In this document: positions 612 through 15,616 of the stretch, one piece after another | How positions within the stretch are numbered: position 1 is the first letter of the stretch | Layout of the letters: the number at the start of each line of letters is the position of its first letter | The notes under the pieces: model-generated | The model's input: only the letters and a program-made list of their open reading frames with translations | Databases searched by the model: none | What the model was told of the DNA's origin: nothing | IMG/VR virus record: IMGVR_UViG_3300027819_000007 | Location: 147,787-163,635 of that record | Reading direction: 5' to 3' (one strand) | Source: a virus | Taxonomy: Duplodnaviria > Heunggongvirae > Uroviricota > Caudoviricetes | DNA length: 15,849 bases | Position numbers and translations under genes: made by a program

Positions 612-1673
612 CTACACTCCAAACCAGTTACGCAACTTCTCCATAATGGTATCCCTCTCCCAATCTTCAGCGAGTTGCTTACCTTCTTCTAAGGATAAAC
701 GTCCTTTTTTGAATCTCCCATTTATGAAAAAATCCCACGTCTTCCCACCAATAGAACGGTTCACTAAGGAGTAGTTCCACCTAGCCCCCTTTGCAAAATA
801 ACTAGCATAAGCAAACTCTGTATCACTAATTCCTTCAATTACCTCCTCCCACTCCAACACAGGTCCATTCGCTACTGCCCTTACTTCTTCATGATGAGGG
901 TACATCTCCTCTCCCCTAGCAACATCAATATCCTCCACAGCATCAGCAATAATCTCCCACGGAGTATCGTTGTCTTCCGTGTTCCGAATCAAAGCCGCAA
1001 CTCGTTGTTCGTAAGTCATGTACTGAGCATCATTGGGTTCAAACAATGCCTTCTTACGATACTTTCTTCGATCTATTTTCCTCAATGCTTCAAGGATGGC
1101 AGCAGTGTAATGAGGAGCCCAATTAGATTCTCTGACTCCTCTATGTATTTCTTCCGAAATAAATCGTTGTGTTGGCTGGCTATCTATTCTCACAGCAGCC
1201 AAAATAGAAGCAAGAGCACCTGTATAAGTGTGCTCCTCATGCACTCCATAATCCTCTGGGTCTACCCTTTCCTTTATCCAATCTTCCAAAGCATCGACCG
1301 CTGCTGGATTGTTATTCACGATAGCATCATAAACCATCGACTGAATAGTAGTCTTACCCTGCTTGGAAAGAGCTTTGGCACGATACTTCAGACGGAGGGA
1401 TTTAGTATCTTTTGAGAATAGATGCCTGAGCATTTCTCCTTCCCATTGGTCTTTGAATACCTTCTCAAGAGCAAAACAAGTTTCTTTCAACTCTTCCCAC
1501 TGATTGTCCTCTTCATGAAATAATGGGACATCTTTCCCCGTAGCGATCTTGTAGAAGTTGGAAGCCCATACCGTTCCTGGGTAGTTCTCTTCAATGTAAT
1601 CCAACACAATATCCACTATTGAATCATCGGTGGAAAGGTCTTCCAGCATCGCCAGGAATGTCGTATCTGCCAT
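612..1673 (-). CDS. Multi-module protein (353 aa) with TIGR02996-like modules and an internal KSLRLKY motif
   Basis: N-terminal FLAMLEDLSTDDSIVDIVLDYIEENYP, then KSLRLKY at aa 91-97, then AIVNNNPAAVDALEDWIKER and later IRNTEDNDTPWEIIADAVED. Starts 3 nt after the upstream stop. Confidence 0.85.
   Translation of the reverse strand: MADTTFLAMLEDLSTDDSIVDIVLDYIEENYPGTVWASNFYKIATGKDVPLFHEEDNQWEELKETCFALEKVFKDQWEGEMLRHLFSKDTKSLRLKYRAKALSKQGKTTIQSMVYDAIVNNNPAAVDALEDWIKERVDPEDYGVHEEHTYTGALASILAAVRIDSQPTQRFISEEIHRGVRESNWAPHYTAAILEALRKIDRRKYRKKALFEPNDAQYMTYEQRVAALIRNTEDNDTPWEIIADAVEDIDVARGEEMYPHHEEVRAVANGPVLEWEEVIEGISDTEFAYASYFAKGARWNYSLVNRSIGGKTWDFFINGRFKKGRLSLEEGKQLAEDWERDTIMEKLRNWFGV
1383..1403 (-). 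repeat. KSLRLKY motif copy 1 (internal)
   Basis: Coding-strand AAATCCCTCCGTCTGAAGTAT; context KDTKSLRLKYRAKAL. Confidence 0.9.
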
Positions 1674-1676
1674 TAC

Positions 1677-1865
1677 TCACTCATCCAGGTAAGGCCAGCC
1701 TTCTTCGATACTACGCCAAGCTTCCCGTTTAAGTCTTTCCTTCTCTACTTCATCGTCTGTGAGTTGACAAGTATCCTGTTGACATACTTTACACAAGCCA
1801 CTTCTGCTACGAGTCAATTCCCCACATCCCTCACAGGGATATGTAGGACGATATTTCCTGGACAT
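1677..1865 (-). CDS. Small Zn-finger-like protein (62 aa)
   Basis: CEGC...CKVC. The ATG at 1865 has AGGTG upstream and is preferred over the ORF-track start at 1874. Confidence 0.75.
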   Translation of the reverse strand: MSRKYRPTYPCEGCGELTRSRSGLCKVCQQDTCQLTDDEVEKERLKREAWRSIEEGWPYLDE

Positions 1866-1880
1866 AACCCACACCTAGCA

Positions 1881-2510
1881 TTAGTTAGGAGGTGGTGGTG
1901 GCATGGGTGCAGGAACAGGAGGAGGAACCACCTCTGGGTCATTGACCTTTCCATCCATTCGTGCTTGCCACTTCTTGTCGTTGTCCCGCATGTGCTTCAA
2001 GGTTCCCTCAATCCACCAACGAGGAACTCCAAGAATGATCCAATCCCTTACCATCCATCTAGTTGCTACACGATAGTTGTCCCACGGTTCATTACAACAT
2101 CCATAAGCCAGGTCGAAGTATTTCGAGTAAGTTCGATTCAAAAACCCCTGATAAGAATCTTCCCTAGATGGAGCATAACTAATATTCCCCTCTGTAGCAT
2201 CAACCATCCACAAACTATCAATCCAGGGATACTTCCCATCCTTATCCACGTAAGTATGCAGTTCTTTACCAACGGCTTCATCCCACAGTCTCTCACACCT
2301 TCTCTTCGTTTCCAGGTCGTTACTTTGCATCCCAAGGTAAAGAGCTTCCCTGGCTCCCATGCCATAGAGGAACAAGGTATCGTGAGCCTTTTGCCTTACG
2401 GGATAGTCATCGTGGCTTAGTTGTTTAACAAGGGCAAGTTGGTTCGGAGTAGGGGGAGCAAAGGATAGAGAGGTGAAAAGACAAAGGAAGGTAGTTAGTT
2501 CATTCATCAT
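1881..2510 (-). CDS. Secreted protein with a HEAT-like repeat and Pro-rich C-terminal tail
   Basis: GGAGG RBS and hydrophobic N-terminus (TTFLCLFTSLSFA). LVKQLSHDDYPVRQKAHDTL...AREAL...SNDLETKRRCERL resembles the HEAT-like pairs common in planctomycete proteins. Tail is PPPVPAPMPPPPPN. Confidence 0.75.
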   Translation of the reverse strand: MMNELTTFLCLFTSLSFAPPTPNQLALVKQLSHDDYPVRQKAHDTLFLYGMGAREALYLGMQSNDLETKRRCERLWDEAVGKELHTYVDKDGKYPWIDSLWMVDATEGNISYAPSREDSYQGFLNRTYSKYFDLAYGCCNEPWDNYRVATRWMVRDWIILGVPRWWIEGTLKHMRDNDKKWQARMDGKVNDPEVVPPPVPAPMPPPPPN

Positions 2511-2538
2511 CGGTTCCTCCGGAAGGTTCTAACATGTC

Positions 2539-3462
2539 CTATTGGATCACCCGCACTCGATAAGGATCATTTTGCGAACCAAACACTAACTCAATTCTAG
2601 CTCCTCCTACTCCTTGTGGTGCAAATCCTATGTCCGCAGCCCAGCTAGCTATACGTCCATGCTCCTCATAACTCTCCTGAGTCTGACCGTCATACGTGCG
2701 AAAATAAGCACCTGACATTATTTGACGAACGTCCTTCACTACTGGATCATAACCTTGCAATGGACAAGCATACGTTTGAATGGCACTGGCTAGGCGATTG
2801 TGCTTATGACCCATCCAAATTACATCTGCTTGTACCCAGCCCTTACGAGCAAAGTCAATCATCCCTTTAGTGATAGGAGCTGAACCACCACTGCCATGAT
2901 GATAGTAAATCACAAACCGTTTTCCGTTACCATGACCCACACCCTCCTTGTCATTCATTCTAAACCTATAATCGACGAATCCTGTGTATCCACCGAAGTG
3001 AATTGTGTGGTTCTTATCCTTCCGTAACTTCCGTAGTTCGTGTACCAAGATTTTGAGGACGTCAATATTGTGGTACTTCTCAATACTGGTCTCATGGTTG
3101 CCACAACCTACCATATCAATCAAGTCAGCATAGGGACCGAGGATCTCTACTCCCCATTCAATTGCTGCATTGATAATGTCTACTTTACCGACCAGACGAG
3201 GGTGGAGAACATCGGCTCGAAACCGTTTACGATCCGCAATGAGGATCATATCAAAGATGTCACCATTGAGGAGAATTCTATCGTTACTCTTCTTGGCATT
3301 TTCCAGCTCTTCCATGATTATGGAATAGTCTACGTTACGAGCACCGATATGAAGGTCCGAAAGAAGTGAGAAGCCTTGGATGAATCCGTTGTGGTAAATC
3401 ACAGGAGCAGGCCGACAGATAAAAAGACCGCCTTTGGGAACAGCCGTGCTCTTCGTGGTCAT
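2539..3462 (-). CDS. Calcineurin-like metallophosphoesterase (307 aa)
   Basis: All five motifs are present: SDLHIG, GDIFD, GNHE, HHG, GHKH. The ATG at 3462 overlaps the upstream TAA (TAATG), so the ORF-track start at 3561 is too long. Confidence 0.9.
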   Translation of the reverse strand: MTTKSTAVPKGGLFICRPAPVIYHNGFIQGFSLLSDLHIGARNVDYSIIMEELENAKKSNDRILLNGDIFDMILIADRKRFRADVLHPRLVGKVDIINAAIEWGVEILGPYADLIDMVGCGNHETSIEKYHNIDVLKILVHELRKLRKDKNHTIHFGGYTGFVDYRFRMNDKEGVGHGNGKRFVIYYHHGSGGSAPITKGMIDFARKGWVQADVIWMGHKHNRLASAIQTYACPLQGYDPVVKDVRQIMSGAYFRTYDGQTQESYEEHGRIASWAADIGFAPQGVGGARIELVFGSQNDPYRVRVIQ

Positions 3463-3731
3463 TAAGACCTCACTTTTCCTTGGTAAAATGGATTCCCTTC
3501 CTGGTTGGATTTTTCTTTGAATGCTTGTTTTGCTGCCCACGCAAGGGCATCGATATGACATCGTTCACACATCTTGGGACCAATGATCACGATGGGAAAA
3601 TCATCGTCTTGGTTACAAATAGGACAAGGTTCACGAAAGAAAGTAGGCATCATTCGCATGGGTAGTTCTCCTAGTTCTTGTTGAAACTGGTTAAGGATTT
3701 CTTCAACTGTAGTATTAGGACCAAGTATCAT
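3462..3731 (-). CDS. Small Zn-finger-like protein (89 aa)
   Basis: CPIC...CERC; tightly coupled to both neighbours. Confidence 0.75.
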   Translation of the reverse strand: MILGPNTTVEEILNQFQQELGELPMRMMPTFFREPCPICNQDDDFPIVIIGPKMCERCHIDALAWAAKQAFKEKSNQEGNPFYQGKVRS

Positions 3732-3732
3732 A

Positions 3733-4140
3733 TTACATTTCTCCCCTCAACCGCTGCATAAACTGCTCAACCAACAATATTACTTTCTCTATACGCTTCA
3801 CAGATTGTCTCAACTCTTCTGCATTTCTCCAATTCTGATCCCCTACTCCATCAGATCGGTTTTCAAAAGAAACAACAGAACGCTCCACATCATGCACCGC
3901 ACCCCTCAGACCTGTGAGCCACAAATTTGCTGACTGTTCAATTGTGATATTCCTACCATAAGATGTCCATTTCAATAATGCCCTAACCACTTCATCAAGT
4001 GGATCACCCTGCTCCTCCAACCAATCTCCCAGGATCATCAAGGTATCATAATCGGTAGGGTTCTCCCGTAGCTGAGCGAAGAGGTCGTCGCCATTACTCT
4101 TCTTTCGATACTTGAGACGGAGGGATTTGATGTCTTTCAT
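3733..4140 (-). CDS. KSLRLKY-tagged protein with a TIGR02996-like module (135 aa)
   Basis: MKDIKSLRLKYRKKS followed by LFAQLRENPTDYDTLMILGDWLEEQGDP, a close match to the remembered TIGR02996 pattern (xAIxxxPdDxxxRLxyADWLeExG). ATGA overlap with the upstream gene. Confidence 0.85.
   Translation of the reverse strand: MKDIKSLRLKYRKKSNGDDLFAQLRENPTDYDTLMILGDWLEEQGDPLDEVVRALLKWTSYGRNITIEQSANLWLTGLRGAVHDVERSVVSFENRSDGVGDQNWRNAEELRQSVKRIEKVILLVEQFMQRLRGEM
4108..4128 (-). repeat. KSLRLKY motif copy 2 (N-terminal)
   Basis: Coding-strand AAATCCCTCCGTCTCAAGTAT; context MKDIKSLRLKYRKKS. Confidence 0.9.
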
Positions 4141-4559
4141 TCTTCACCTGCTAGTGCTTCTTGTAATCCAGCGTCGTCAACCGGAACTCCCATACTGTTT
4201 CCCGCTTCGATAATCCTATCTAGAAGTTCTCTTAAAGCAGTAGCTATCTCAGAAGGAACGGACCAATTGATAGGGAAATATGACATTACTTGTACCTCAT
4301 CAATCCGTATCGATACTTTAATCCTCGGATGTTCCTGCCACTGATGCTCAATCCACTCTCCCCTATCCCAATCCCCTGTTGTCAAAGTTACCGGAGACTC
4401 GTGTCGAAAAGAGTAATCAAACCCTCCATAATTCTGCTCCTCCATTTTATCATGAAGCTCTTCCCACCTACCGGCATCGGCCATGCGGATAAAATCCCCA
4501 CGAACGAAGGTGTTGGACTTCTTACTGTATTTCATCCTCAGAGATTTGATCTTATTCAT
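4137..4559 (-). CDS. KSLRMKY-tagged protein (140 aa)
   Basis: The ATG at 4559 overlaps the upstream TGA (ATGA), with GGAG 9 nt upstream, giving MNKIKSLRMKYSKKS. A degenerate module follows (WEELHDKMEEQ). Confidence 0.8.
   Translation of the reverse strand: MNKIKSLRMKYSKKSNTFVRGDFIRMADAGRWEELHDKMEEQNYGGFDYSFRHESPVTLTTGDWDRGEWIEHQWQEHPRIKVSIRIDEVQVMSYFPINWSVPSEIATALRELLDRIIEAGNSMGVPVDDAGLQEALAGEE
4527..4547 (-). repeat. KSLRMKY motif copy 3 (N-terminal)
   Basis: Coding-strand AAATCTCTGAGGATGAAATAC. Confidence 0.85.
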
Positions 4560-4876
4560 CCTCCCACTCTCCAATCTCGATTCTCAATGGGTGGGGTCAG
4601 CAGCCCCTTCTCGAAACAAGATAAGTTGTAGACGGTAAAGTTAAAGCAGCCCCACGGGATCATGTCGATATTGTCATACACATCCAACTTGATTTCCTTG
4701 AGGAGAAGGGAGAGTTCATTACCATCTACACTGGTCGTACAAACATACCAGCCCCCAAACATATCGCATAGGCAAGACTTCAACCAACTCCTGGAAGCAA
4801 GAAGATTGACGATGTGATGGAACTCTTGTCTTCCATCACCCGCCAGGGTCCAACTTCTTGTTTCGAGAAAACTCAC
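4556..4876 (-). CDS. Hypothetical protein (106 aa)
   Basis: GTG start overlaps the upstream TGA (GTGA) and its stop overlaps the downstream ATG; no family recognised. Confidence 0.7.
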   Translation of the reverse strand: MSFLETRSWTLAGDGRQEFHHIVNLLASRSWLKSCLCDMFGGWYVCTTSVDGNELSLLLKEIKLDVYDNIDMIPWGCFNFTVYNLSCFEKGLLTPPIENRDWRVGG

Positions 4877-5001
4877 ATTCTACTCCCTAAAGCCCAATCT
4901 TCCACTTCCACATCTTCTCCAAAGGGAGGCTTATCTTCCGTCAAATCTCTAATAAGAGCATAGAGCCAGTAAATGCCCAGACAGCAAAGGATATATCTCA
5001 T
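4873..5001 (-). CDS. Small membrane protein (42 aa), not in ORF track
   Basis: Translated by hand: MRYILCCLGIYWLYALIRDLTEDKPPFGEDVEVEDWALGSRM. It fills the gap exactly, with ATGA and GTGA overlaps. Confidence 0.7.
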   Translation of the reverse strand: MRYILCCLGIYWLYALIRDLTEDKPPFGEDVEVEDWALGSRM

Positions 5002-5195
5002 GGAGGACTTCCTTCTTCTAAAGTAAAAGTTACCTTAACAATGTGATACTTTTGACTCTCCCAATAAGTCCAGTTGTTATTACCCCACTTCATCCACTCC
5101 GCATAGTGAAAGAAATTATCTTTCACCAACTTCTCTTTAGTAGAAAATGAAGGATCAATTATTTCCGTAGAGCCATCCTCTTTATCGTGAATCAC
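4998..5195 (-). CDS. Hypothetical protein; start uncertain
   Basis: The frame is open 4998-5318. The GTG at 5195 overlaps the upstream TAG/TGA and avoids a 124-nt overlap, but its RBS is weak. Confidence 0.55.
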   Translation of the reverse strand: MIHDKEDGSTEIIDPSFSTKEKLVKDNFFHYAEWMKWGNNNWTYWESQKYHIVKVTFTLEEGSPP

Positions 5196-5733: not shown

Positions 5734-6078
5734 TCACCTCATTCTATGTAAAATAACATTTGCTGTAAGTTTCGCTCCAAGAAGTATTTGATATTCCTCC
5801 AACATCTTTTCTATCTCTCCTTCCCCCTCCTCAGCACCATCCCTTACTTGTTCAATAGAGATACTATTTTCATATAATCTTGTTAAAAGATCATTATCTA
5901 TTCCAACCAAATTACAAATTTTCCTTGCTAGAGATACATGAAGAAATTCATTATTTGGAATACCTATTTTGTCCCACAGTTCAGGATGATTCTCACTAAG
6001 ATAATCACAAGCAATCATAGCGACATTTCTATCCTCAGTGGAAGTATCATAGAGCATACTTCTTAGAATTGTATCCAT
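5734..6078 (-). CDS. Protein with an N-terminal TIGR02996-like module and no KSLR tag (114 aa)
   Basis: MDTILRSMLYDTSTEDRNVAMIACDYLSENHP resembles the N-termini of 612-1673 and 11714-12403. Confidence 0.75.
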   Translation of the reverse strand: MDTILRSMLYDTSTEDRNVAMIACDYLSENHPELWDKIGIPNNEFLHVSLARKICNLVGIDNDLLTRLYENSISIEQVRDGAEEGEGEIEKMLEEYQILLGAKLTANVILHRMR

Positions 6079-6546: not shown

Positions 6547-7623
6547 TTACTCCCGGTAAAAAGGATTTTTCTTGACTTCCACATCCAGAAGAGGATCAGG
6601 ATTGGAAGGAGACATATCAGCCATCACACACTCAGGTTTGACTGAAGAATCCTTCATGGACTTTTCCATCGCTGCCAGATGAACCTGCTCCACGATCTTC
6701 TGGAAGACTTTCTTCTCCTTATGGACTCGCTGAGCAGTCTCAAACAAGGCTTCCTCTCGACAGCAAGCACACAGCCACTTCTGAATAGTATGAAGATAAT
6801 TCCCATTCCTGAAGAATCCAAAACGATCTAATTCCAACTCCACCCCACACACTCCACAGGAAATAGATTCCTTGTCTTTCCCATCTATAGGACAGGAATC
6901 CAACTTTTTGATTTCCGTATCCTTGTCAGGGATGTTAAACTTTCCAGGCATCGGTGTGGGCTGTGAATCTCTTGCAATCATATCCTGAAGATATTCTTTG
7001 CATTGAAGATTTACGGAATCAACTCTCTGAGCAGGAAGGAGAGCGTGGATAGAGTCAAGGATAAGTTTCTTCGTCTCCAGAATTTCCTCGTTGGTGATTT
7101 TCTTATCTCCTACCTTGGGAGTTACATTTACCGTCACGATAATTTGCATAGGTAGTCTCCTATCCTTATTGAATTTTCTCAACTTGCCAATTTGATTAGC
7201 AGGATCCAACATAGACTCTCGAATCTTCTCTACCGAAACCAAATACTCTCTTAACACCTCACTAACAGGCCCATCTTTCTCTTGCATCAATCCAATAAGA
7301 AGATGACTAGAATGAACATAGCCATCATCCCAATATCCCGCTTCTCTAATAGAAGCCTCAATCACCCTTCTTACCCGTGGGGTTTGCGGGAATATATCTG
7401 GCATAATCCTACTTTGACAAGGAGGAATCATGCTCGTTATTCGATTCAGAAGATGGTTTGTATCCACTCCCATATTCCACAAAACAGTAAAGCCTGCACC
7501 CTCCTCCCTAATAAGACCTATAAGGAGATGTTCAACATCAATCCACCCATGATTTAGTTTCTGGGATTCCAGATTGGATAACCTCATCACTTCCCTAAAA
7601 CCTGCTGTAGATTTTTGAATCAT
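6547..7623 (-). CDS. Clp N-terminal (Clp repeat) domain protein without an AAA+ module; Cys-rich C-terminal part
   Basis: aa ~9-140 carry two Clp-N repeats: LNHGWIDVEHLLIGLIRE and PQTPRVRRVIEAS...YVHSSHLLIGLMQE. No Walker A/B motif. Later CGVC...CACC. Confidence 0.85.
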   Translation of the reverse strand: MIQKSTAGFREVMRLSNLESQKLNHGWIDVEHLLIGLIREEGAGFTVLWNMGVDTNHLLNRITSMIPPCQSRIMPDIFPQTPRVRRVIEASIREAGYWDDGYVHSSHLLIGLMQEKDGPVSEVLREYLVSVEKIRESMLDPANQIGKLRKFNKDRRLPMQIIVTVNVTPKVGDKKITNEEILETKKLILDSIHALLPAQRVDSVNLQCKEYLQDMIARDSQPTPMPGKFNIPDKDTEIKKLDSCPIDGKDKESISCGVCGVELELDRFGFFRNGNYLHTIQKWLCACCREEALFETAQRVHKEKKVFQKIVEQVHLAAMEKSMKDSSVKPECVMADMSPSNPDPLLDVEVKKNPFYRE

Positions 7624-7636
7624 AATTTATATCTCT

Positions 7637-8677
7637 TTAGTGAACACGAATAGTAAGAGAAGAAACATCTCCCAGCACCCCTCGCAACTTTCTCAGCCCC
7701 GCTTCACTGAAGTCAGAAGGAATAAAATCCACACTTCCTGGAGGAGGCTGATAGGCCAACAGCTTCTCAGGGGAGATAAGTCCAAACCCATAACTACTAT
7801 CCCATCCAGTAGGACCAAGATCCAACGAAGTTTTGTGAAGGTGCTCAATCACTTGCTGGGGAGTACCTACAGGGGAAGCACCCCCGATAGAACGATGCTT
7901 GGCCAGCATCAAGGCAATCACACCCGCAGCGTAAGGACAGGCAAAGGAAGTTCCACTCATTACCGCTTGGTTGTTGGGAGGAATGTCAACCAGGATGTTT
8001 ACTCCCGGAGCCACAATGTCAACTCGTTTACCACGGGAAGAGAACCTTGCAATTGCCTTGGTCTGGTCAATGGCCCCTACACTAACCACCCCCTCTACCT
8101 GTGCGGGATACCCTACCGTGGAGAGATCTGGACCCTCATTCCCTGCGGCACATACACAGATAATGCCAGCAGCCAGGGCTTCCTCTACGGCTTGATTAAT
8201 AGACGCATCAGGGGAAGGAGAACCAAACGACATGGAGATAATGTCAGCCTTCTTCTCCACCAACCAACGAATCCCCGAAGTGATACTACGAGAGCCTCCT
8301 GCTCCCTGTGAGTTCAACACCTTTCCAACAAGAAGACCTCCCTCATTAGCTACCCCCACGATCCCTACCTCGTTATCCCTCGCCGCGATGATAGAGCCAC
8401 AAGCTGTACCATGCCCATTATCGTCCGCAGGTCCGGTAGGGGAACCTGTAAAATCCTTGGCATCAAGAATAGCCCCCTGCAAGTCTCCATGAACCAGGGA
8501 AATACCTGTATCGAGAACTCCAATCTTAATTCCTTTTCCTCTTGTTTCTTTCCACAAAGGAGGGATGTTAAGTAATTTGATTCCCCAATCAATCGACTGT
8601 GACCGTGCTGTAAACACCTGTTCTACAGTAAAGGGGGGAAGTCTAAACACAGGTTCCGTCAATACTTCATCAGCCAT
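7637..8677 (-). CDS. Subtilisin-family (S8) serine protease, intracellular type (346 aa)
   Basis: Catalytic D56 (VLDTG), H89 (DDNGHGT), oxyanion N180 (AAGN) and S244 (SGTSFACP). There is no signal peptide or long prodomain; the short N-extension contains FRLPPF, like the LIPY/F motif of intracellular subtilisins. Confidence 0.95.
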   Translation of the reverse strand: MADEVLTEPVFRLPPFTVEQVFTARSQSIDWGIKLLNIPPLWKETRGKGIKIGVLDTGISLVHGDLQGAILDAKDFTGSPTGPADDNGHGTACGSIIAARDNEVGIVGVANEGGLLVGKVLNSQGAGGSRSITSGIRWLVEKKADIISMSFGSPSPDASINQAVEEALAAGIICVCAAGNEGPDLSTVGYPAQVEGVVSVGAIDQTKAIARFSSRGKRVDIVAPGVNILVDIPPNNQAVMSGTSFACPYAAGVIALMLAKHRSIGGASPVGTPQQVIEHLHKTSLDLGPTGWDSSYGFGLISPEKLLAYQPPPGSVDFIPSDFSEAGLRKLRGVLGDVSSLTIRVH

Positions 8678-8901
8678 TACACTTTCTCCTTCAGAGCTTC
8701 CTTGTAGGTACAGAGTTTACCATCACTCACCCTTCTCCATAAAGCGGGATGTCCTGTCTTCCTGCTGTTGATCTGCCAGCCTCTCTTACGAAGAAGTGTA
8801 TCATTAGGGAAAGGATCAGCCTGACAGCGAAGACACACTCCTCCCCCATAATCTCCCAGAGGAGAGTCACACAGTTTACAGATTTCTTTACTTGATGCCA
8901 T
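8677..8901 (-). CDS. Small Zn-finger-like protein (74 aa)
   Basis: CKLC...CLRC; GAGG RBS; TAATG coupling to the subtilase. Confidence 0.75.
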   Translation of the reverse strand: MASSKEICKLCDSPLGDYGGGVCLRCQADPFPNDTLLRKRGWQINSRKTGHPALWRRVSDGKLCTYKEALKEKV

Positions 8902-9757: not shown

Positions 9758-10609
9758 TTAACTTACATAAAGTTTCTCCAAAGCACGCTTCAATGCCTTC
9801 TTTCCATATTTATCTGCCGACATCTGAGCATAATAACGAAACATTGTCCTTATACGTCCATTGATTCTATCCATCAATTTTTCTCTTATCAAAAACCTCA
9901 CCGAAGGAGGATACCGGGATAGCCTGTCCATTACCTTATCGACAGAACTGACTATATCCTCCTTGCTAGCCATTTCAACTTTACCATCTTCGTTCAAAGA
10001 AATTAGGGGGCTTTCCAAAAAGGACGTGAAAGTATCCATAGCAAATCTAAGCTCATGATCCGCATGAGCTTCTATGGAAGAATCATCAGAATATGATCGA
10101 ATATTACCTACAAGATTGTGTAACGCATTAAATTTACCTTCGTGTCGAGCAGGAGAATTGATGATTTCTTCTACTCTATCAGCAAACCAATCTAAATCTT
10201 CGTCTTTAACTCCCAATTTCGTAAGAAATGGCAACACCTCTTCTGGAGTGTTAGTTATGATATCCGCAAGTTCGGAAGTCATCCCAAGAGGAGAGGTGTC
10301 CTGCTTGGGTTCTACTAAACTTCTAACATAAGACGTAACTTTCTCCCACGATTCACCATCCAGTATCCTTGCAATGATCTCATTGGCCTCTGTAGGATCA
10401 ATTTTATGACCAGACTTCTCTACAAAATATCTTTCTAATTGCTGTAGTCCACCCTCTTCTCTTGCAACGGATGTCACCATCTCATAAGCAGTATTTTCAT
10501 CAATCCCCAAAGTCGCAAGAGAGAAAGCCTTCTTCTCATATTTATAACGAAGAGATTTCACCTTCCGGAAGTTCTTGAAGTGAACTAAATTTCTTATTAA
10601 CTCTGGCAT
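9758..10609 (-). CDS. KSLRYKY-tagged helical protein (283 aa; alternative GTG start at 10624)
   Basis: MPELIRNLVHFKNFRKVKSLRYKYEKKAF..., with degenerate modules LERYFVEKSG and WFADRVEE; GGTGAG 7 nt upstream of the ATG. Confidence 0.8.
   Translation of the reverse strand: MPELIRNLVHFKNFRKVKSLRYKYEKKAFSLATLGIDENTAYEMVTSVAREEGGLQQLERYFVEKSGHKIDPTEANEIIARILDGESWEKVTSYVRSLVEPKQDTSPLGMTSELADIITNTPEEVLPFLTKLGVKDEDLDWFADRVEEIINSPARHEGKFNALHNLVGNIRSYSDDSSIEAHADHELRFAMDTFTSFLESPLISLNEDGKVEMASKEDIVSSVDKVMDRLSRYPPSVRFLIREKLMDRINGRIRTMFRYYAQMSADKYGKKALKRALEKLYVS
10538..10558 (-). repeat. KSLRYKY motif copy 4 (near N-terminus)
   Basis: Coding-strand AAATCTCTTCGTTATAAATAT. Confidence 0.85.
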
Positions 10610-10637
10610 TTCATTTCTCACCACGAAAGGGAAGCCT

Positions 10638-10911: not shown

Positions 10912-11292
10912 TTACTTTCCTTTCTTTCTTGCTTTCTTGGAGTGTTTGGTTCGACCACGTTCCTCAAGCCAGTCAGCATAAACTTGCCAGGTATCCTTAT
11001 TGTCCTCCTCTGTTCCCAGAGCAGTACAGAACTCCCTTTCCACATCACTCAGTCCCAGGATGAAGAGAAGTCTTTCAAACTGTTCCTTGGTAACAGCAGA
11101 TGAAAGAAGTCCACTACCATCTAAATTAATTCCTCCCAAATTAACAGGAGGAATCTGAACAGGTGCGGGGGCCGGGACAGGAGTAGGAAGATAGGGAATG
11201 ACACAATCCTCTGGTCGGTAAGTCCAATCCGGAGTCACCTTGTAGGGTTCATTCCAAGGATGGTTCCACGTATTGTCATACCATTCAGCCAC
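10912..11292 (-). CDS. W/P-rich protein with a C-terminal TIGR02996-like module (126 aa)
   Basis: EREFCTALGTEEDNKDTWQVYADWLEERGR is the closest match in the window to the TIGR02996 pattern. N-terminus is WYDNTWNHPWNEPY...PTPVPAPAPV. Confidence 0.8.
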   Translation of the reverse strand: MAEWYDNTWNHPWNEPYKVTPDWTYRPEDCVIPYLPTPVPAPAPVQIPPVNLGGINLDGSGLLSSAVTKEQFERLLFILGLSDVEREFCTALGTEEDNKDTWQVYADWLEERGRTKHSKKARKKGK

Positions 11293-11320
11293 GATGTACC
11301 CCCTTTGTAGAAAAGACTAA

Positions 11321-11593
11321 TCAACGAAACAGTCCGCGACGAATCACCGTCTTCTGCTTGATAACCACAGGACGTTCCCGTACCACTTCCTTGATTACCA
11401 CATTCTGCTGTCGGATGACAACATCATTACTGAAGAAAACTCTATTGTTGGGAACAAACGCAACAGTAGAAGAAAATCCATTATCTACCCTTACTGCATT
11501 GAAAGAAAAAACATTCACTACAAATCCACTCGCCTGGCAAGGTGCCGAAGAGAGCAAGAACACAGCCACTACTACCAGTATTAGTTTCTTCAT
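11321..11593 (-). CDS. Small secreted Val-rich protein (90 aa)
   Basis: AGGAG RBS at the ATG 11593; signal peptide MKKLILVVVAVFLLSSAPCQA; repeated VVIR/VVIK; ends RRGLFR. Confidence 0.8.
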   Translation of the reverse strand: MKKLILVVVAVFLLSSAPCQASGFVVNVFSFNAVRVDNGFSSTVAFVPNNRVFFSNDVVIRQQNVVIKEVVRERPVVIKQKTVIRRGLFR

Positions 11594-11607
11594 GACAAAA
11601 ATCTCCT

Positions 11608-11712: not shown

Positions 11713-11713
11713 T

Positions 11714-12403
11714 TTAGTCATCTTCTCTTACATCCATTCTCGATCTATGCCGTCTCCGTCTTCTCCTATCAGATTCCTGACCCCTAGTCTCCTCCATCTG
11801 TGAGGATGACCAAAACCGTTGCCTCCTCCCACTATCATCAGATGGAATTCTACAACTCGCACAGGTTTGGAATCCTTCCCTCTCATCCTGTTCCGTGAGT
11901 TCACCTTCTTTACAACGCAGACAAAGAGCTTTCTCATACTGCACAAATTTCTTGGAGTATTTAAGCCTCAGAGACTTTACCTTCCACAACCATTGAGCCT
12001 TTCCCCCACCCCCACCACCCCAACGTCTATCCTCTTCCTCATCCCATTGTCTCTGTCTTTCCTTCCTCTGTCTATCTATCTCCTCTTCAGAAGGTTGTTC
12101 TGCTCTTAACCTCTCTTCTTCTGCCACCTTACGTATATTTTCAAGTTTTAACTCATCAGATGTTTTGTCGGGGGTTCTAACGGGATGCTTTTCTTTGTAA
12201 GCATTACTGACATTAATTGCTGCTTGATAAAGTTTTGAATTAGAAGTATCAAAACCAGCATCCCTTAGTAGTTGTTTGGGATCATTACCAGCAAAATCAT
12301 TATCCTCGATATACTACAATGCTTCCTCAATAGCCACTTCCCTTTCCTCAACATCAGGATTGGAACAATTTTGCAACAACGATCTTAGTATAGCGTCAAC
12401 CAT
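11714..12403 (-). pseudogene. 229-codon multi-module gene with one in-frame TAG (pseudogene, error or readthrough)
   Basis: AGGAA RBS then MVDAILRSLLQNCSNPDVEEREVAIEEAL*YIEDND..., continuing in frame into the ORF-track segment 11714-12127: E/R-rich helix, Gly6, KSLRLKY, CLRC/CASC, Arg-rich tail. The TAG is codon 30 (12314-12316). Confidence 0.7.
11957..11977 (-). repeat. KSLRLKY motif copy 5 (internal)
   Basis: Coding-strand AAGTCTCTGAGGCTTAAATAC; context WKVKSLRLKYSKKF. Confidence 0.9.
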
Positions 12404-12416
12404 TATTATTTCCTAT

Positions 12417-12632
12417 TCAAAATACAGGGTAAAGTTCCTGATCATCTTCCGCTTCTATCTTCGCAATAGTACGAGTGAGGTCTTCCAAAAGTTTCTTGGC
12501 CATATGAAGTTTGATATGTCCGGTCACTCCAGTCCCCAGCATCAGCTTGACGGAATTACCATAGGAACGCTCCGCTTTCACAAAATCATCGCAGTCGGTT
12601 CCGTCCAGAAGAATAGAAAGAGAAGTCTTCAT
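12417..12632 (-). CDS. Hypothetical protein (71 aa)
   Basis: ATG at 12632 with AAGGA upstream (MKTSLSILLD...). Confidence 0.65.
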   Translation of the reverse strand: MKTSLSILLDGTDCDDFVKAERSYGNSVKLMLGTGVTGHIKLHMAKKLLEDLTRTIAKIEAEDDQELYPVF

Positions 12633-12643
12633 AGAAAATTTCC

Positions 12644-12991
12644 TTAAATAGTCCTTAACCAACTATTAATCCACTGTACATAAGCAGCGGGAAAAGTCGA
12701 TCTTCTTCTCTCCAACTCATCTTTCATACCAGATTTCAAAAGCATTCCATTTGTTTGAACAGCGTATTCCAAATCTTTCAAAACACAGTCAAGATCAGAT
12801 TTACCATTATGATATACTACATCCTTTCTAGTTTCGTCTACTCTCTCTTTCAACCAATCCCCTAAAATCGGAATATAATCCGTGTCATTCTTATCAAGAA
12901 TGTGTTGCACCATCAACAACAATTCTTCATTGTCCTCTTCCGACAATGTTTTAACACGATACTTCAAGCGGAGGGATTTGATATCTCTCAC
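12644..12991 (-). CDS. KSLRLKY-tagged protein with a TIGR02996-like module (115 aa)
   Basis: MRDIKSLRLKYRVKT...QHILDKNDTDYIPILGDWLKER; GTGA overlap with the upstream gene. Confidence 0.85.
   Translation of the reverse strand: MRDIKSLRLKYRVKTLSEEDNEELLLMVQHILDKNDTDYIPILGDWLKERVDETRKDVVYHNGKSDLDCVLKDLEYAVQTNGMLLKSGMKDELERRRSTFPAAYVQWINSWLRTI
12959..12979 (-). repeat. KSLRLKY motif copy 6 (N-terminal)
   Basis: Coding-strand AAATCCCTCCGCTTGAAGTAT; identical to copy 7. Confidence 0.9.
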
Positions 12992-14034
12992 TTGAACATC
13001 TCCACATGCTGTTTGGAAAGAGGTGGGGACGCCGTTCCATCAGCATTACGAGGCATCCTCAACTTAACATCCTGGGTAGAAAGTCTCTCTCTCACCTTCT
13101 TCTTCTCTTCCTCTTTCATCTGTGGGAAGGAAAAAACATCGAAATTTCCTTTGGGTTTACTCCCTGCATGACAGGAAGAACACTGCAAAGCCGCCACTTG
13201 ATAGAAGTTGACACTAACATCTGGGTTTCCCTGTACTCTAACCGGCTGGTCGGGGAGTGGTTTAACCTCCACCTTACCATCCGGAGTTTGTTCGATCTGG
13301 AAGCGGAATTCTCTCGTTGTGATCTGAGCTTGATTCTCTGCTTTGGACGCTTGCAATACCTTTGCCGCAGCTTCACCCTTGGCGAGTATCTCCGCAACCC
13401 TGGCACTATTGTTTCCCTCCTGCTGGACCAAACCAGCAAAATCGGTAGTAGCCTGACCTGCTAACTGCTGTGCATTCTGAGTGTGTCGAGACGCTTGCTG
13501 AAAAAGAATATTCCTGTCGAAATTTCCATAGGCATCTATAAAAGTAGAAAGAGAATATCCTGTGATTGTTTTACCTTGATACCCTGCAGGAGAGATGGAA
13601 AGTGAATTGTAGCCATAAGGATCGGCTCCGTAGTTCTGGAATCTAAATTGGCCCGCCAACCCTAAAGCCTCCACAGCTTCAAGAAAATACTTTTGTTCAG
13701 AAGCATTAAGCCTCAACTTCCCCTCAATCTTATCTCGGTTCTGGGCAATTTTTAGAAGTTGTGATCTCCAATCAGGATCGGTGTAAGTGACCTGCTTGTT
13801 AATGGGGTAGTAAGAATAGTAATAAGCGTAATAAGCCTTTCCATAAGCATAGTAAGTATAATACTGCTGCTTACGATAGTAGGGACCATAGGTAGTCCCA
13901 CCCTCATCGTAGTAGTAATACCCATCATTTCCTGTATAATAACCATCCCCATTCACACTACTCGCTTGAGCGGGAGACAGTGACATTACCAAGGCCAAGA
14001 TCAATACCATTGTAAGAAACAGAAAACGTCCCAT
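12988..14034 (-). CDS. Secreted protein with a Tyr-rich tract and a C-terminal monoheme c-type cytochrome domain (planctomycete cytochrome C-like)
   Basis: Signal peptide ending PAQA; 21 Tyr in 45 residues (13807-13941); CSSCH at 13168-13182, followed by KGNFDV...RMP...PPL, with the Met of RMP a candidate distal ligand. Confidence 0.85.
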   Translation of the reverse strand: MGRFLFLTMVLILALVMSLSPAQASSVNGDGYYTGNDGYYYYDEGGTTYGPYYRKQQYYTYYAYGKAYYAYYYSYYPINKQVTYTDPDWRSQLLKIAQNRDKIEGKLRLNASEQKYFLEAVEALGLAGQFRFQNYGADPYGYNSLSISPAGYQGKTITGYSLSTFIDAYGNFDRNILFQQASRHTQNAQQLAGQATTDFAGLVQQEGNNSARVAEILAKGEAAAKVLQASKAENQAQITTREFRFQIEQTPDGKVEVKPLPDQPVRVQGNPDVSVNFYQVAALQCSSCHAGSKPKGNFDVFSFPQMKEEEKKKVRERLSTQDVKLRMPRNADGTASPPLSKQHVEMFK

Positions 14035-14176
14035 TGAGAAGCACCCCTATAAGTTCTGATTTTGAAATATTCTTCAAGTAAGTCTGTACTGCTTCGCTGT
14101 TCCACCATTGTCGGTACTCCAGGTTGAATTGATATTCTAGTTCAGATTCACGTCGATGAGTGATTTTATAAGTCAT
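13958..14176 (-). CDS. Hypothetical protein (72 aa)
   Basis: TAA-ATG abutment with the upstream gene; its 3' end overlaps the cytochrome gene by 77 nt. Confidence 0.55.
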   Translation of the reverse strand: MTYKITHRRESELEYQFNLEYRQWWNSEAVQTYLKNISKSELIGVLLNGTFSVSYNGIDLGLGNVTVSRSSE

Positions 14177-14404
14177 TTACAGTAATCCTGAAAAGTCTTC
14201 TTCATACCAGGAAGAAGGAGGCTTTCTCTTCTCCAACACTTCATCCGGAGGAAGTTTAATACTATCAATCTCCTGCTGAATCAAAGCCTCTTCCTTGGCT
14301 CGCTTGATATTCTCCACGATCTCCAAAGTGATATTCTTCTGAAACTCCTCCACGAACTTCTCACAGGCTTGTTTCAACTTGAGTTTGTATTCTTCCTCAG
14401 TCAC
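14177..14404 (-). CDS. Small charged coiled-coil-like protein (75 aa)
   Basis: GTG start 1 nt after the upstream TAA; E/K-rich. Confidence 0.7.
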   Translation of the reverse strand: MTEEEYKLKLKQACEKFVEEFQKNITLEIVENIKRAKEEALIQQEIDSIKLPPDEVLEKRKPPSSWYEEDFSGLL

Positions 14405-14405
14405 G

Positions 14406-14561
14406 TTAGATTCCCCACTTCCAGATATTCCACACCATCACCCCTACTGCCAGCATAAACCCCAGGACACTCAAAAGGAAGACCAAAGCAACCCCTCCCA
14501 GCGTCTCCATCGGAGGCTCCGGGTGGAAAGATTCTTCTGCGTATTTGTCAGACTGGTTCAT
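14406..14561 (-). CDS. Small single-TM membrane protein (51 aa), not in ORF track
   Basis: MNQSDKYAEESFHPEPPMETLGGVALVFLLSVLGFMLAVGVMVWNIWKWGI; ATGA overlap upstream. Confidence 0.7.
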   Translation of the reverse strand: MNQSDKYAEESFHPEPPMETLGGVALVFLLSVLGFMLAVGVMVWNIWKWGI

Positions 14562-14995
14562 ACAGACAATCCTAATTTAGAACACACAGCATCTCTTATT
14601 TTGTTGATTACAGAAGGACAAAACATATTCCGATATGATGACAGATAACTATCCTCCAAATGATCCATGACAAAATTCAAAGAGTGTCTGCTTGTATCCA
14701 TCAAATCCCTACCAACGATAAAATCTATTACACGACCAACTGACTTCTCATCAGGAAACAAACCATTGATTAACTCATACCCAAAACTGTCACCAAAACG
14801 GAGACACTTTCTTACTGCCCACTCCGCATCTTCGTGGGAGATGTCCCGACCACTCTCGGCCAACAAATCTTTTATCATCGCCACTTTTACATCAAGAGGC
14901 TCATCACTACGAGCGATTCTATCCAACATACCAGCAGCGATGCTCTTCTTCTGATACTTCAAGCGGAGGGATTTAATTCCAGATTTCGTCGCCAT
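14558..14995 (-). CDS. KSLRLKY-tagged protein (145 aa)
   Basis: GGAGGG RBS; MATKSGIKSLRLKYQKKS; degenerate module RIARSDEPLDVKVAMIKDLLAESGR. Confidence 0.8.
   Translation of the reverse strand: MATKSGIKSLRLKYQKKSIAAGMLDRIARSDEPLDVKVAMIKDLLAESGRDISHEDAEWAVRKCLRFGDSFGYELINGLFPDEKSVGRVIDFIVGRDLMDTSRHSLNFVMDHLEDSYLSSYRNMFCPSVINKIRDAVCSKLGLSV
14954..14974 (-). repeat. KSLRLKY motif copy 7 (N-terminal)
   Basis: Coding-strand AAATCCCTCCGCTTGAAGTAT; identical to copy 6. Confidence 0.9.
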
Positions 14996-15173
14996 GAGAC
15001 TTCACCCTCCACAATTCATTACCACGCTCCAGATTCCTGGATTGACGCTTCCAGAATTCTACTTCCTGCTTTAGCTTTTCATTACGACAGATCATGACAA
15101 TGAGAGCGATCTCCAATCCTACCCCAATTCCAATCAGGAGCCAGTGCAAAAAATCCATAATATTATTCCTCAC
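14973..15173 (-). CDS. Small single-TM protein with a cytoplasmic coiled coil (61-66 aa)
   Basis: FLHWLLIGIGVGLEIALIVMIC then EKLKQEVEFWKRQ. Start is GTG 15173 (GTGA overlap) or ATG 15158 (GAGGA RBS). Confidence 0.7.
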   Translation of the reverse strand: MRNNIMDFLHWLLIGIGVGLEIALIVMICRNEKLKQEVEFWKRQSRNLERGNELWRVKSHGDEIWN

Positions 15174-15616
15174 AAAGAATCTCGCAACTTTTCCAATTGG
15201 CTAACATTCCTCAGTAACTCTTCTCTCTTTTGTGTATATATATTAATCAAATTCTCTCTCGCCTTTTCAACTCCAATCATTTCAGCAAGACGACCAAACC
15301 GAATAGGAAATTGAGGTGGATCAAGATCAACATCTGTCATAGCCTGCTCAAGACCCACAATCTTATCATCTACTTGATGAATTCTTGTGGTAATGATTCG
15401 ATCAAGATTGGGTTCCCCCTTCAACCTCCGCATCCGGTCCAACAAGAAATTCATATCCTCCTTCCCCAACTCAAGTCCATTCTCCTCCAAATAATCCATC
15501 AACAACCCCGCCCGATCCCTCCTCTTGATAGTATCATCCTGACTCAAACCACGAAAGATGTTAGGGTCAAGAACCTTTCTATACTTCAATCGCAAGAATT
15601 TCAGTTTAGAATTCAT
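15170..15616 (-). CDS. KFLRLKY-tagged protein with a TIGR02996-like module (148 aa)
   Basis: MNSKLKFLRLKYRKV...RGLSQDDTIKRRDRAGLLMDYLEENG. Confidence 0.8.
   Translation of the reverse strand: MNSKLKFLRLKYRKVLDPNIFRGLSQDDTIKRRDRAGLLMDYLEENGLELGKEDMNFLLDRMRRLKGEPNLDRIITTRIHQVDDKIVGLEQAMTDVDLDPPQFPIRFGRLAEMIGVEKARENLINIYTQKREELLRNVSQLEKLRDSL
15581..15601 (-). repeat. KFLRLKY motif copy 8 (N-terminal, S to F variant)
   Basis: Coding-strand AAATTCTTGCGATTGAAGTAT. Confidence 0.8.

Follow-up and report, generated by a model that had tools for sequence, protein, structure and literature searches.

Diverged TIGR02996-family modules, repeat-less and expanded in a groundwater phage

Why do so many small genes of one phage region share a short acidic-aromatic motif, several of them next to the same basic peptide, and what could such a family do? 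The window, that is, the whole stretch of 15,849 nucleotides analysed here, comes from an uncultivated groundwater phage and corresponds to G000:C1:14845-30693, reversed, of a 37.9 kb contig. It belongs to the terminase-to-portal region of a tailed-phage genome, where ~28 kb of small genes are flanked on the contig by TerL and portal. All family genes are on the minus strand of the window, among many small membrane and Zn-ribbon genes, and the block also codes for a Clp_N-domain protein and an S8 protease. Such a mix of small membrane and Zn-ribbon genes is typical of an accessory region.

Module copies and their relation to TIGR02996

About 15 small phage genes are built on a short helical module related to TIGR02996. 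The first-pass annotation had proposed to build a custom HMM and count the copies, and on the contig this gave 14 profile-supported modules in 13 ORFs, besides degenerate and decayed copies. Seven of them, in 6 ORFs, lie in the window:

612-1673, minus strand: 353 aa; module 1 at 1539-1673 (DYIEE, 1587-1601), tag at 1383-1403, module 2 at 1230-1367 (DWIKE, 1269-1283); degenerate second tag RRKYRKK at 1050-1070; possible module 3, IIADAVED, at 930-953
3733-4140, minus strand: 135 aa; tag KSLRLKY at 4108-4128, module at 3970-4107 (DWLEE, 4012-4026), two-helix tail
5734-6078, minus strand: 114 aa; module at the extreme N-terminus, 5944-6078 (DYLSE, 5992-6006), without tag
10912-11292, minus strand: 126 aa; Pro/Trp-rich N-terminus, C-terminal module at 10915-11055 (DWLEE, 10960-10974), without tag
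12644-12991, minus strand: 115 aa; tag at 12959-12979, then module at 12806-12943 (DWLKE, 12845-12859)
15170-15616, minus strand: 148 aa; tag KFLRLKY at 15581-15601, then module at 15443-15580 (DYLEE, 15482-15496)

All nine motifs named in the first-pass annotation were found where it had placed them, on the minus strand. The three coding-strand frames of the contig contained D[WY][LI]xE 12 times and the three opposite frames never; shuffling the proteins 1000 times gave 0.44 occurrences on average and never more than 4. In only 2 of 15 copies did the upstream flank alone score above every one of 500 shuffles. It is the motif rather than the flank that is conserved, as would be expected of a retained binding face; D-W-L-E-E-x-G of the module, charged and aromatic, is near-invariant.

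The proposed relation to TIGR02996 was borne out by NCBIfam matches, hhalign and a reciprocal profile search. When the proteins were searched one by one with the TIGR02996 profile, 10912-11292 (27.1 bits, E 2.6e-6; 28.6 bits in the genome search) and 3733-4140 (18.5 bits, E 1.3e-3) were matched, both under the NCBIfam cut-off of 29.05 bits, which no window copy reached, and eight other proteins gave no match. Outside the window, contig 2358-2471 exceeded the cut-off with 43.8 bits, and four more contig copies stayed below it. With the outside profile A6, 3733-4140 scored 49.8 bits and 10912-11292 scored 30.5 bits. The hhalign comparison of 15 phage with 48 canonical modules gave a probability of 97.9 and E 5e-13 over 37 columns, a score partly obtained by construction, since the canonical set A6 was fetched by a pattern taken from the motif itself. 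Outside profiles matched 7 contig proteins at E <= 4e-5, with 0.06 as the best opposite-strand control. A profile of phage tag plus module retrieved proteins with 3-5 TIGR02996 copies at 90-186 bits, and 3733-4140 as a single phmmer query matched each repeat of P0004. Taken together, the window copies form an expansion of the TIGR02996 domain family that is diverged and free of repeats.

Of the 7 window copies, outside profiles recognised just two, 3733-4140 and 10912-11292, and the other five are linked to the family through transitive paralogy inside the phage, which was still found after tag removal; the E-values concerned, 1e-3 to 1e-5, refer to tag-less sequences in a database of 19, and custom-HMM scores of seed copies are circular. 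For 12644-12991, the TIGR02996 search of NCBIfam gave no match and A6 gave E 0.028, within noise; without its tag it matched 3733-4140 (2.9e-4) and the middle of 612-1673 (5.2e-4), and its orthologues are P0015 and P0039. Both 15170-15616 and 5734-6078 are members of the custom HMM and were not recognised by the outside profiles (NCBIfam, A6). The former matched contig 7714-7842 (1.9e-4) and contig 12285-12698 (1.1e-3) without its tag and has a positional orthologue by synteny, P0021, in another groundwater phage, while the latter matched the N-terminus of 612-1673 at 5.9e-5.

AF2 models 3733-4140 with six helices (pLDDT 75.6), and its motif closes helix 31-43, the second of a helix-turn-helix; in all three units of 612-1673 the motif has the same position. 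A helix-turn-helix is thus predicted for the unit, with the near-invariant D[WY]LEExG at the close of its second helix. We found no solved structure of a TIGR02996 relative and, in the literature collection searched, no mention of TIGR02996. As the first-pass annotation had noted, the phage copies lack repeats: no repeat family was matched in any window protein even at E <= 10, nor were repeats found in 10 module proteins of other viral contigs.

The 48 canonical modules were also compared with Pfam. TPR_15, TPR_19, TPR_17, TPR_20, TPR_16 and TPR_14 were matched by 2-7 of the 48 (best E 0.0018-0.03), none over threshold. No F-box family was found among the matches at E <= 10, so an F-box-like adaptor identity has no support in sequence. 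Host LRRs weakly match an F-box-associated LRR family, which is uninformative on the N-terminal module.

Basic tag, fusion protein and decayed copies

The basic peptide KSLRLKYxKK is present in roughly half of the window copies. The claim that the module usually comes right after this tag was an overstatement, true of 4/7 window copies and 4/14 contig copies, the other 10 modules on the contig being without it. Synonymous codons vary in the tag, so it is kept as protein and not as DNA. In a related phage, P0026, a protein of 1776 aa whose N-terminus resembles the front part of the head protein phrog_617 (PHROG match), contains about seven copies of K[TA]LR[TLI]KYRK, and its gene lies two genes upstream of a major head protein gene. 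The tag peptide is thus shared with a head-assembly protein, and since it recurs in this head-protein polyprotein, the tagged copies would most likely be packaged into the capsid, cut there, or both.

The fusion protein 612-1673 gave two significant module matches with the custom HMM. Its residues 89-212 correspond to a stand-alone 129-aa gene of a related phage, P0007 (E 1e-55), which follows the same upstream Zn-ribbon gene there. AF2 was confident only for residues 101-210; the tag, located at the fusion junction, falls in a low-confidence linker. This position and the presence of the tag in a head polyprotein both fit a processing or loading signal. The possible third module, IIADAVED, had no significance (E 5.7 and 1.7 with profiles, 0.024 against one paralogue).

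Five further minus-strand features were considered:

4137-4574, minus strand: tag at 4527-4547; HDKMEEQ at 4434-4454, at the module position
9758-10624, minus strand: 288 aa; tag at 10538-10558
11714-12127, minus strand: internal tag at 11957-11977, then a Cys4 ribbon-like segment; no module after the tag
12314-12403, minus strand: 29-codon ORF (AL*YIED) ended by an in-frame TAG, 12314-12316, at the invariant Asp position
14558-14995, minus strand: 145 aa; tag at 14954-14974, degenerate module KDLLAESG at 14849-14872

The module HMM did not match 14558-14995. Its alignment with contig 12285-12698 spans the tag, the module and sequence past it (3e-8 when the tag is left out), and contig 12285-12698 itself aligned with 15170-15616; because of this chain, with the tag removed, 14558-14995 is a supported degenerate copy, as first suggested. 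The frame of 12314-12403 continues into 11714-12127. Its best paralogue is 5734-6078, a weak match with E 0.08, and its TAG was identical in three assemblies from the same study. TAG is a normal stop elsewhere, where it ends 5 genes, and a search for tRNA genes found none. Probably, 12314-12403 is a decayed module. Neither 4137-4574 nor 9758-10624 was matched by the module HMM; by statistics, the former is similar to 3733-4140 over the tag only and the latter likewise shares only the tag. A DKMEE-like segment in 4137-4559 and a RYFVEKSG-like segment in 9758-10609 lie at the usual 32-42 residues after the tag, and this spacing argument leaves the degenerate modules proposed there unproven. Of the claimed spread over about ten genes, the 7 copies in 6 ORFs and degenerate 14558-14995 are supported, 12314-12403 looks decayed, and 4137-4559, 9758-10609 and IIADAVED are unproven.

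Module copies in other phages and hosts, and their proposed role

Each phage paralogue has its own orthologue in related phages, so that the expansion is old and arose by old duplications. P0002 and P0003, orthologues of 3733-4140, share 75% identity over residues 1-56 (E 3e-30), and their tails cannot be aligned with that of 3733-4140. The family also evolves by in-frame fusion, as in 612-1673, by decay, as in the TAG copy, and by tail replacement behind a conserved head. The tails had been called unrelated, which holds between subfamilies, whereas subfamilies share tails.

Repeat-less module copies were found on at least 22 other IMG/VR contigs, in two related ones of which a module gene lies directly before the portal homologue. 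Giant phage proteins carry 3-8 copies each, including a portal fusion (P0011, Portal_Mu with 4 canonical modules) and a Zeta-toxin protein (P0004, Zeta_toxin with 5 modules), and P0013 and P0012 combine canonical modules with 2H-phosphoesterase/Acb1-like stretches, the latter below threshold. With the repeat-less module so widespread in other viral contigs and in virion-type giants, the idea that this element captured it from its host is unsupported.

The nearest cellular loci belonged to Planctomycetota in 26 of 34 cases. In hosts the module was joined to LRR_6 in 8/10 and to FGE-sulfatase in 2/10 architectures, and Planctomycetota genomes held 5-132 copies each. The phage has a G+C content of 44%, far from that of Gemmata, so its host is not Gemmata itself; it is probably another planctomycete.

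The presence of the head-protein tag on several genes suggests delivery into the host to act on the partner of the module. The reading we tentatively prefer is that tagged copies are virion-delivered and engage the partner of the host modules, with tails that block or retarget it. Tagged copies would be loaded into the capsid and/or cut there and would enter the cell together with the DNA. In a host that is probably a planctomycete, whose LRR and FGE-sulfatase proteins start with the same module, the conserved acidic-aromatic helix would bind whatever the host modules bind, and the variable tails would either block the host partner or bring new targets to it.

It is unlikely, though worth weighing, that the module is a virion-internal docking unit with no host target, for example in small proteins stacking on module-like segments in the C-terminal extension of the portal. 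In this phage the extension has three such segments, regularly spaced (ILADAVEESG, IYCDKLEEN and MWLEEHG), as well as three LNGVH[TS]K motifs, P0011 joins its four canonical modules to a Mu-type portal, module genes adjoin portal genes in related contigs, and the weak recurrent likeness is to TPR units, which stack on each other. However, the portal segments are individually insignificant (i-E 5-13), the domain is abundant in cellular LRR and FGE-sulfatase proteins unconnected with virions, and a conserved head followed by hypervariable tails is better explained by a conflict interface than by a structural component.

Improbable, in our judgement, is a role as unpackaged cytoplasmic accessory proteins of early or mid-infection that still compete with host TIGR02996 proteins, with the tag serving another purpose, for instance as a degradation, localisation or nucleic-acid-binding peptide. 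The absence of the tag from most contig modules, the accessory-type small membrane and Zn-ribbon neighbours, and the Clp_N-domain protein and S8 protease of the block would agree with this, but the tag recurs within the head-protein polyprotein of a related phage and sits at the low-confidence junction of 612-1673. We give as little credence to the module being a stable TPR-like helical cap or folding nucleus without a common partner, the paralogues having unrelated functions. TPR families were the only recurrent weak Pfam matches of the canonical modules, host modules precede solenoid repeats, where capping is plausible, and the module of 10912-11292 is C-terminal; yet a cap would not need the near-invariant D-W-L-E-E-x-G, and the module also precedes the globular FGE-sulfatase domain and stands alone in many short phage proteins. 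Chance occurrence of a short acidic motif in an acidic proteome has a negligible probability: the family proteins are mostly acidic and the upstream flanks alone carry little signal, but motif enrichment over shuffles and opposite strand, hhalign, the outside-profile matches and the orthologues in other phages refute a compositional artefact.

Comparison with known systems

TIGR02996 ('rpt_mate_G_obs', a repeat-companion domain) of Gemmatales and other Planctomycetota is the same ~40-residue unit as in the phage, with a helix, a P-x-D loop and a second helix ending in ADWLEExGD in both. Cellular members score 45-87 bits and phage copies 13-44. In cells the unit is N-terminal on LRR_6 or FGE-sulfatase proteins, whereas in the phage it is repeat-less, sometimes comes after a basic tag and can be C-terminal or internal. 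The phage copies reach a density of at least 14 per 38 kb, compared with ~10 per Mb for the richest of the host genomes examined.

The internal proteins of phage T4 (IPI-III, Alt) carry a capsid targeting sequence. As there, a short conserved N-terminal peptide precedes divergent small proteins in a variable region and is common to head-assembly proteins (here P0026). Unlike there, the phage peptide, which has no sequence relation to that of T4, has a strongly basic character and need not be N-terminal (it is internal in 612-1673 and 11714-12127), its cargo shares a host-like module, and its role in loading and cleavage is putative. Polyvalent and portal- or MuF-fused giant proteins occur in phages and conjugative elements. 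Giants of this type (P0004, P0011, P0013, P0012) hold 3-8 canonical TIGR02996 modules per protein, whereas the modules of this phage are split over many small genes, with 612-1673 as an intermediate form.

Poxvirus ankyrin/PRANC proteins and viral CARD-, PYD- or DED-only decoys are viral families of adaptor-only or adaptor plus variable-domain proteins. By analogy, many viral paralogues retain a small docking domain of host type and differ in the remainder; these families have no homology to the phage module, and an F-box relation was not found. In bacteria, effector-associated adaptor domains (EADs, bacterial Death-like domains) of counter-invader systems are small alpha-helical N-terminal domains ahead of interchangeable LRR or FGE-sulfatase (FGS) sensor-type domains, and bacteria that have complex life styles encode them in many copies per genome (PMC8195603). 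The host architecture and copy number of TIGR02996 match that description, and the portion of it considered here does not mention TIGR02996 (PMC8195603). Unlike in EAD systems, no NTPase or effector partner of the module was found in this analysis. We regard it as a speculative and quite improbable extension that TIGR02996 might be a homotypic adaptor, similar to EADs and Death-like domains, coupling planctomycete LRR/FGE-sulfatase invader sensors to effectors, and that the phage might preload its capsid, via a head-protease tag, with adaptor-only or adaptor plus new-tail proteins that would be injected together with the DNA and would jam or redirect this immune wiring before phage gene expression. 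If true, this would be a bacterial counterpart of the viral CARD-, PYD- or DED-only decoys.

A diverged, repeat-less TIGR02996 family

All motifs named in the first-pass annotation were found, on the minus strand and inside the ranges it had given. On the 37.9-kb phage contig, the pattern D[WY][LI]xE occurred 12 times in the three coding-strand frames and 0 times in the three opposite-strand frames, while residue-shuffled predicted proteins gave a mean of 0.44 and a maximum of 4. A profile seeded from the sites (its scores for its own seeds are circular) converged on 14 module copies in 13 contig ORFs and recruited two new members, contig 11101-11472 (ADALEE) and contig 4712-5101 (DHLEE). The window held seven of these copies in six minus-strand ORFs, namely 15170-15616, 12644-12991, 10912-11292, 5734-6078, 3733-4140 and 612-1673 (two copies). 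What the copies share is mainly the motif, and the flank upstream of it carries little family-wide signal: in a leave-one-out comparison, only 2 of 15 copies had 26 upstream residues that outscored every one of the 500 shuffles.

Membership of the phage copies in TIGR02996 is graded. With the NCBIfam model, 10912-11292 reached 27.1 bits (E 2.6e-6) and 3733-4140 reached 18.5 bits (E 1.3e-3), both below the 29.05-bit cut-off, and no match to this model was found in the other eight candidate window proteins. Across the whole contig there were six matches, one over the cut-off (contig 2358-2471, 43.8 bits). An outside profile, built solely from canonical modules (48 in all) of planctomycete loci and of viral loci other than this phage's, recognised seven contig proteins at E <= 4e-5, including 3733-4140 (49.8 bits) and 10912-11292 (30.5 bits) in the window. 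It placed 12644-12991 and 15170-15616 in the noise zone (best opposite-strand control 0.06) and missed 5734-6078 and both copies of 612-1673. The five unrecognised window copies were tied to recognised ones by pairwise similarity after removal of the tags, the E-values within the contig coming from tiny databases: 2.9e-4 for 12644-12991 with 3733-4140, 5.2e-4 for 12644-12991 with the middle of 612-1673, 5.9e-5 for 5734-6078 with the front of 612-1673, and 2e-4 and 1e-3 for 15170-15616 with two contig copies. In hhalign, 15 phage modules aligned with the canonical ones (probability 97.9, E 5e-13); the 37 aligned columns cover both the P-x-D loop and the first helix. In the reverse direction, a phage tag-plus-module profile searched against 1.84 billion representatives retrieved 42 proteins, among them giants with TIGR02996 in three to five copies (90-186 bits). 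Taken together, the NCBIfam, outside-profile, pairwise, hhalign and reciprocal-profile results show, at the level of sequence, that the phage family truly belongs to the TIGR02996 superfamily, as a branch that has diverged strongly, and the relation proposed at first reading holds in this graded form. The first reading would have been refuted had even 10912-11292 and 3733-4140 lacked a TIGR02996 match, and both have one.

The single-sequence model of 3733-4140 (pLDDT 75.6) was all-helical; its first helix, formed by the tag, was poorly defined, and the motif closed its third. In the model of 612-1673, a helix-turn-helix with the motif ending its second helix occurred three times; AlphaFold was confident for the middle unit alone and placed the tag in a low-confidence linker. 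Foldseek with the 3733-4140 model against AFDB clusters and the PDB gave generic helical matches only (E >= 0.09), and the ESM Atlas returned only unnamed viral and planctomycete clusters. A PDB sequence search with the canonical profile found chance-level matches only, such as protein A repeats, and no solved TIGR02996 structure. An F-box relation, considered for a 45-residue N-terminal helical domain standing before LRRs, was not found, and the idea was rejected.

Old duplication, fusion and decay behind a conserved motif and variable tails

The family proteins have 114-353 residues and are mostly acidic. None of them showed repeats or a Pfam family, which bears out the description of the module as free of repeats, and the three members scanned against PHROGs (3733-4140, 10912-11292 and contig 2334-3008) gave no match. 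The tag peptide K[SFA]LR[LMY]KY occurred nine times on the contig, eight of these in the window. Since synonymous sites in its codons vary freely, it is conserved at the peptide level rather than as a signal in the DNA. It precedes four of the seven window modules, with the motif Asp 34-40 residues past the first Lys of the tag, and is absent from the remaining ten contig modules, so that a module standing "usually right after the tag" is true of part of the window only.

The tails, first described as unrelated, differ across subfamilies but are common within a subfamily: 14558-14995 can be aligned end to end with contig 12285-12698, and a C-terminal W-x-x-Y helix is common to 12644-12991, the middle of 612-1673 and the metagenomic proteins P0007, P0015 and P0039. 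In the 3733-4140 group, residues 1-56 are 75% identical (E 3e-30) and the tails are unalignable, which makes a sharp head-tail break. For every paralogue there is a separate orthologue in other metagenomic phages, and the expansion is therefore old and maintained. The orthologues named were as follows.

3733-4140, minus strand: P0002 and P0003
15170-15616, minus strand: P0021, in the same gene order
12644-12991, minus strand: P0015 and P0039
Middle of 612-1673, minus strand: P0007

612-1673 itself is a fusion protein. Its residues 89-212 form a separate 129-residue gene (P0007) in a related phage, with the tag at the start and the same Zn-ribbon gene directly upstream. P0007 ends just past the position of a second, degenerate tag, so that a tag-like peptide flanks both ends of the middle unit.

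1050-1070 (residues 202-208 of 612-1673), minus strand: degenerate second tag, IDRRKYRKKAL

The segment IIADAVED of the same protein, which had been listed as a module, was not significant; it stands at the same distance behind the degenerate tag RRKYRKK. Among the three proteins proposed to hold degenerate forms, 14558-14995 is accepted as a degenerate copy because it aligns with contig 12285-12698 across the tag, the module position (KDLLAESG) and beyond, and contig 12285-12698 aligns in turn with 15170-15616. By every statistic, 4137-4559 and 9758-10609 have the tag alone in common with the family, and the module HMM matched none of the tag-only proteins; in these two, DKMEE-like and RYFVEKSG-like segments, respectively, lie at the usual tag distance. 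The 29-codon ORF 12314-12403 has a TAG stop exactly at the position of the invariant Asp. It is weakly similar (E 0.08) to the N-termini of 5734-6078 and 612-1673, and its frame past the TAG continues into the tag-bearing 11714-12127. Recoding of TAG is unlikely, because TAG is a normal stop in this phage and ends five genes; no tRNA gene, including a suppressor for TAG, was found in the 38 kb. The simplest reading is that a former module-linker-tag fusion has decayed here.

Genomic setting, virion-type proteins and giants

The window corresponds to bases 14845-30693, read on the reverse strand, of the 37.9-kb IMG/VR phage contig (CheckV completeness 23%). The sequence is also present, base for base identical, on a 163.5-kb groundwater metagenome contig, and the three assemblies that carry it are not mutually independent. 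Landmark genes and the recognisable families inside the window, which are the S8 subtilase, the Clp_N protein and the exonuclease only, are listed below with two further ORFs.

Contig 245-2323: large terminase, at the contig start
Contig 31098-33842: portal gene
Window 7637-8677, minus strand: S8 subtilase (family match)
Window 6547-7623, minus strand: Clp_N-domain protein with two Clp_N repeats and then a Cys-rich C-terminus, directly after the S8 subtilase
Window 2539-3561, minus strand: metallophosphoesterase-type exonuclease (family match)
Window 12988-14034, minus strand: 348-aa protein that looks secreted, Tyr-rich in its N-terminal part and with CSSCH as a C-terminal motif
Window 3-608, plus strand: 201-aa ORF, open at the window start, the sole sizeable opposite-strand ORF in the window

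Terminase and portal, a usually adjacent pair, are separated by about 28 kb (contig 2324-31097) with about 55 mostly small genes, nearly all on one strand. Many of these encode small membrane or Cys4 Zn-ribbon proteins, e.g., window 1677-1874, 3462-3731 and 8677-8901. The CSSCH motif of 12988-14034 is reminiscent of planctomycete cytochrome-type domains; this protein had no match in Pfam or PHROGs, and 3-608 had no family match.

The portal of this phage has a 340-residue C-terminal extension (residues 575-914; locus L008, 2821-3843; contig 32820-33842). It contains the module-like segments ILADAVEESG (616), IYCDKLEEN (733) and MWLEEHG (828), each insignificant alone (i-E 5-13), and three copies of LNGVH[TS]K at 575, 696 and 889. 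The last of these stands in a KSL...SKSKKK context, reminiscent of the KSLRLKYRKK tag. At the peptide level, the tag is common to a head polyprotein of a related phage, P0026 (1776 residues), where it occurs about seven times; at its N-terminus P0026 is similar to the front part of a head-protein PHROG, and its gene lies two genes upstream of one for a major head protein.

In a narrow pattern search, of a kind that favours DWLEE-type copies, canonical modules turned up on 22 further IMG/VR contigs, at up to five per 20 kb. Their module proteins have 79-800 residues and none is tagged, and ten of them searched against Pfam gave no domain. In two of the 22 contigs the module gene is followed directly by a homologue of this phage's portal, and one has a Clp_N homologue nearby. 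The viral contig L017 has a module gene with a Clp_N homologue (E 8e-20) in its vicinity. The module also occurs in portal-fused and toxin-bearing giants.

P0011: giant with a Mu-type portal and four modules
P0004: giant with five modules and a Zeta-toxin domain

Other giants have 2H-phosphoesterase/Acb1-like stretches below threshold. P0004, P0009, P0010, P0013 and P0014 (1062-3504 aa) carry 5-8 matched module stretches each, joined to a Zeta toxin domain, HTH/sigma-70 region 4 domains or 2H-phosphoesterase/Acb1-like segments; in their architecture they resemble the polyvalent proteins that phages or conjugative elements encode.

Host modules and possible roles of the phage copies

Planctomycetota accounted for 26 of the 34 nearest cellular loci, with Gemmatales, Gemmataceae, Planctomycetaceae and Pirellulaceae as the main groups. 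In the host proteins the module is N-terminal and is followed by LRR_6-type repeats in eight of ten and by an FGE-sulfatase domain in two of ten. Four host genomes had 5, 28, 44 and 132 TIGR02996 matches at 45-87 bits, which places the domain among the most expanded in Planctomycetota, with up to at least 132 copies per genome. The phage density, at least 14 per 38 kb, is over an order of magnitude above that of the richest of these four genomes. Gemmata has a high G+C content, and the ~44% G+C of the phage argues against Gemmata itself as the host. No usable conserved neighbour of the host module genes emerged from a search of their surroundings, which was confounded by spurious long ORFs in high-GC DNA. 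In two Planctomycetota MAG loci (L037:285-4725 and L055:2800-5037), short module genes form tandem arrays that are four to six genes long. L037 may be a prophage, because its 'TTEDDF...TRLVFADWL' subtype is otherwise seen in viral contigs and P0004.

TIGR02996 is catalogued and uncharacterised. The searchable literature had no mention of TIGR02996, IPR014338 or 'repeat-companion domain', and nothing was found there on a phage-borne, repeat-less, partly tagged branch. The phages keep the bare module, multiply it, vary its tails and put it in virion-type proteins, which gives a first handle on its function, since the phage copies offer small, soluble-looking baits with which to find a partner. 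The module is also a host-prediction marker for uncultivated phages, and should its partner prove to act in defence or signalling, phage-host conflict would be opened up in a little-known phylum.

From the family, its tag, its tails, its duplications and the giant proteins, we tentatively favour a joint model of delivery and partner binding. Tagged copies would be loaded into the capsid, processed there, or both, and would then enter the cell alongside the DNA; the D[WY]LEExG helix would engage the partner of the host TIGR02996-LRR and FGE-sulfatase proteins, and the tails would block or redirect that partner. For 3733-4140 paired with the first 110 residues of the Gemmatales TIGR02996-LRR protein L036, the complex prediction scored 0.00 and weighs neither way. 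Docking purely inside the virion is unlikely: the module's presence in portal-type proteins speaks for it, its presence at the N-terminus of host LRR proteins against. That the copies are unpackaged cytoplasmic accessory proteins, the tag having another function, is improbable; the untagged modules speak for it, the tagged head polyprotein against. The canonical modules showed TPR as their sole recurrent family signal, a weak one, and a generic TPR-like cap without a common partner is just as improbable.

Injected decoys that consist of the adaptor only are a still fainter prospect, suggested by the likeness of the host architecture to the 'EAD principle' in bacterial counter-invader systems (PMC8195603). 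The relevant passages of that paper do not mention TIGR02996. As in the EAD systems they describe, the host proteins are numerous and place a small helical N-terminal domain ahead of interchangeable domains of sensor type (LRR or FGS).
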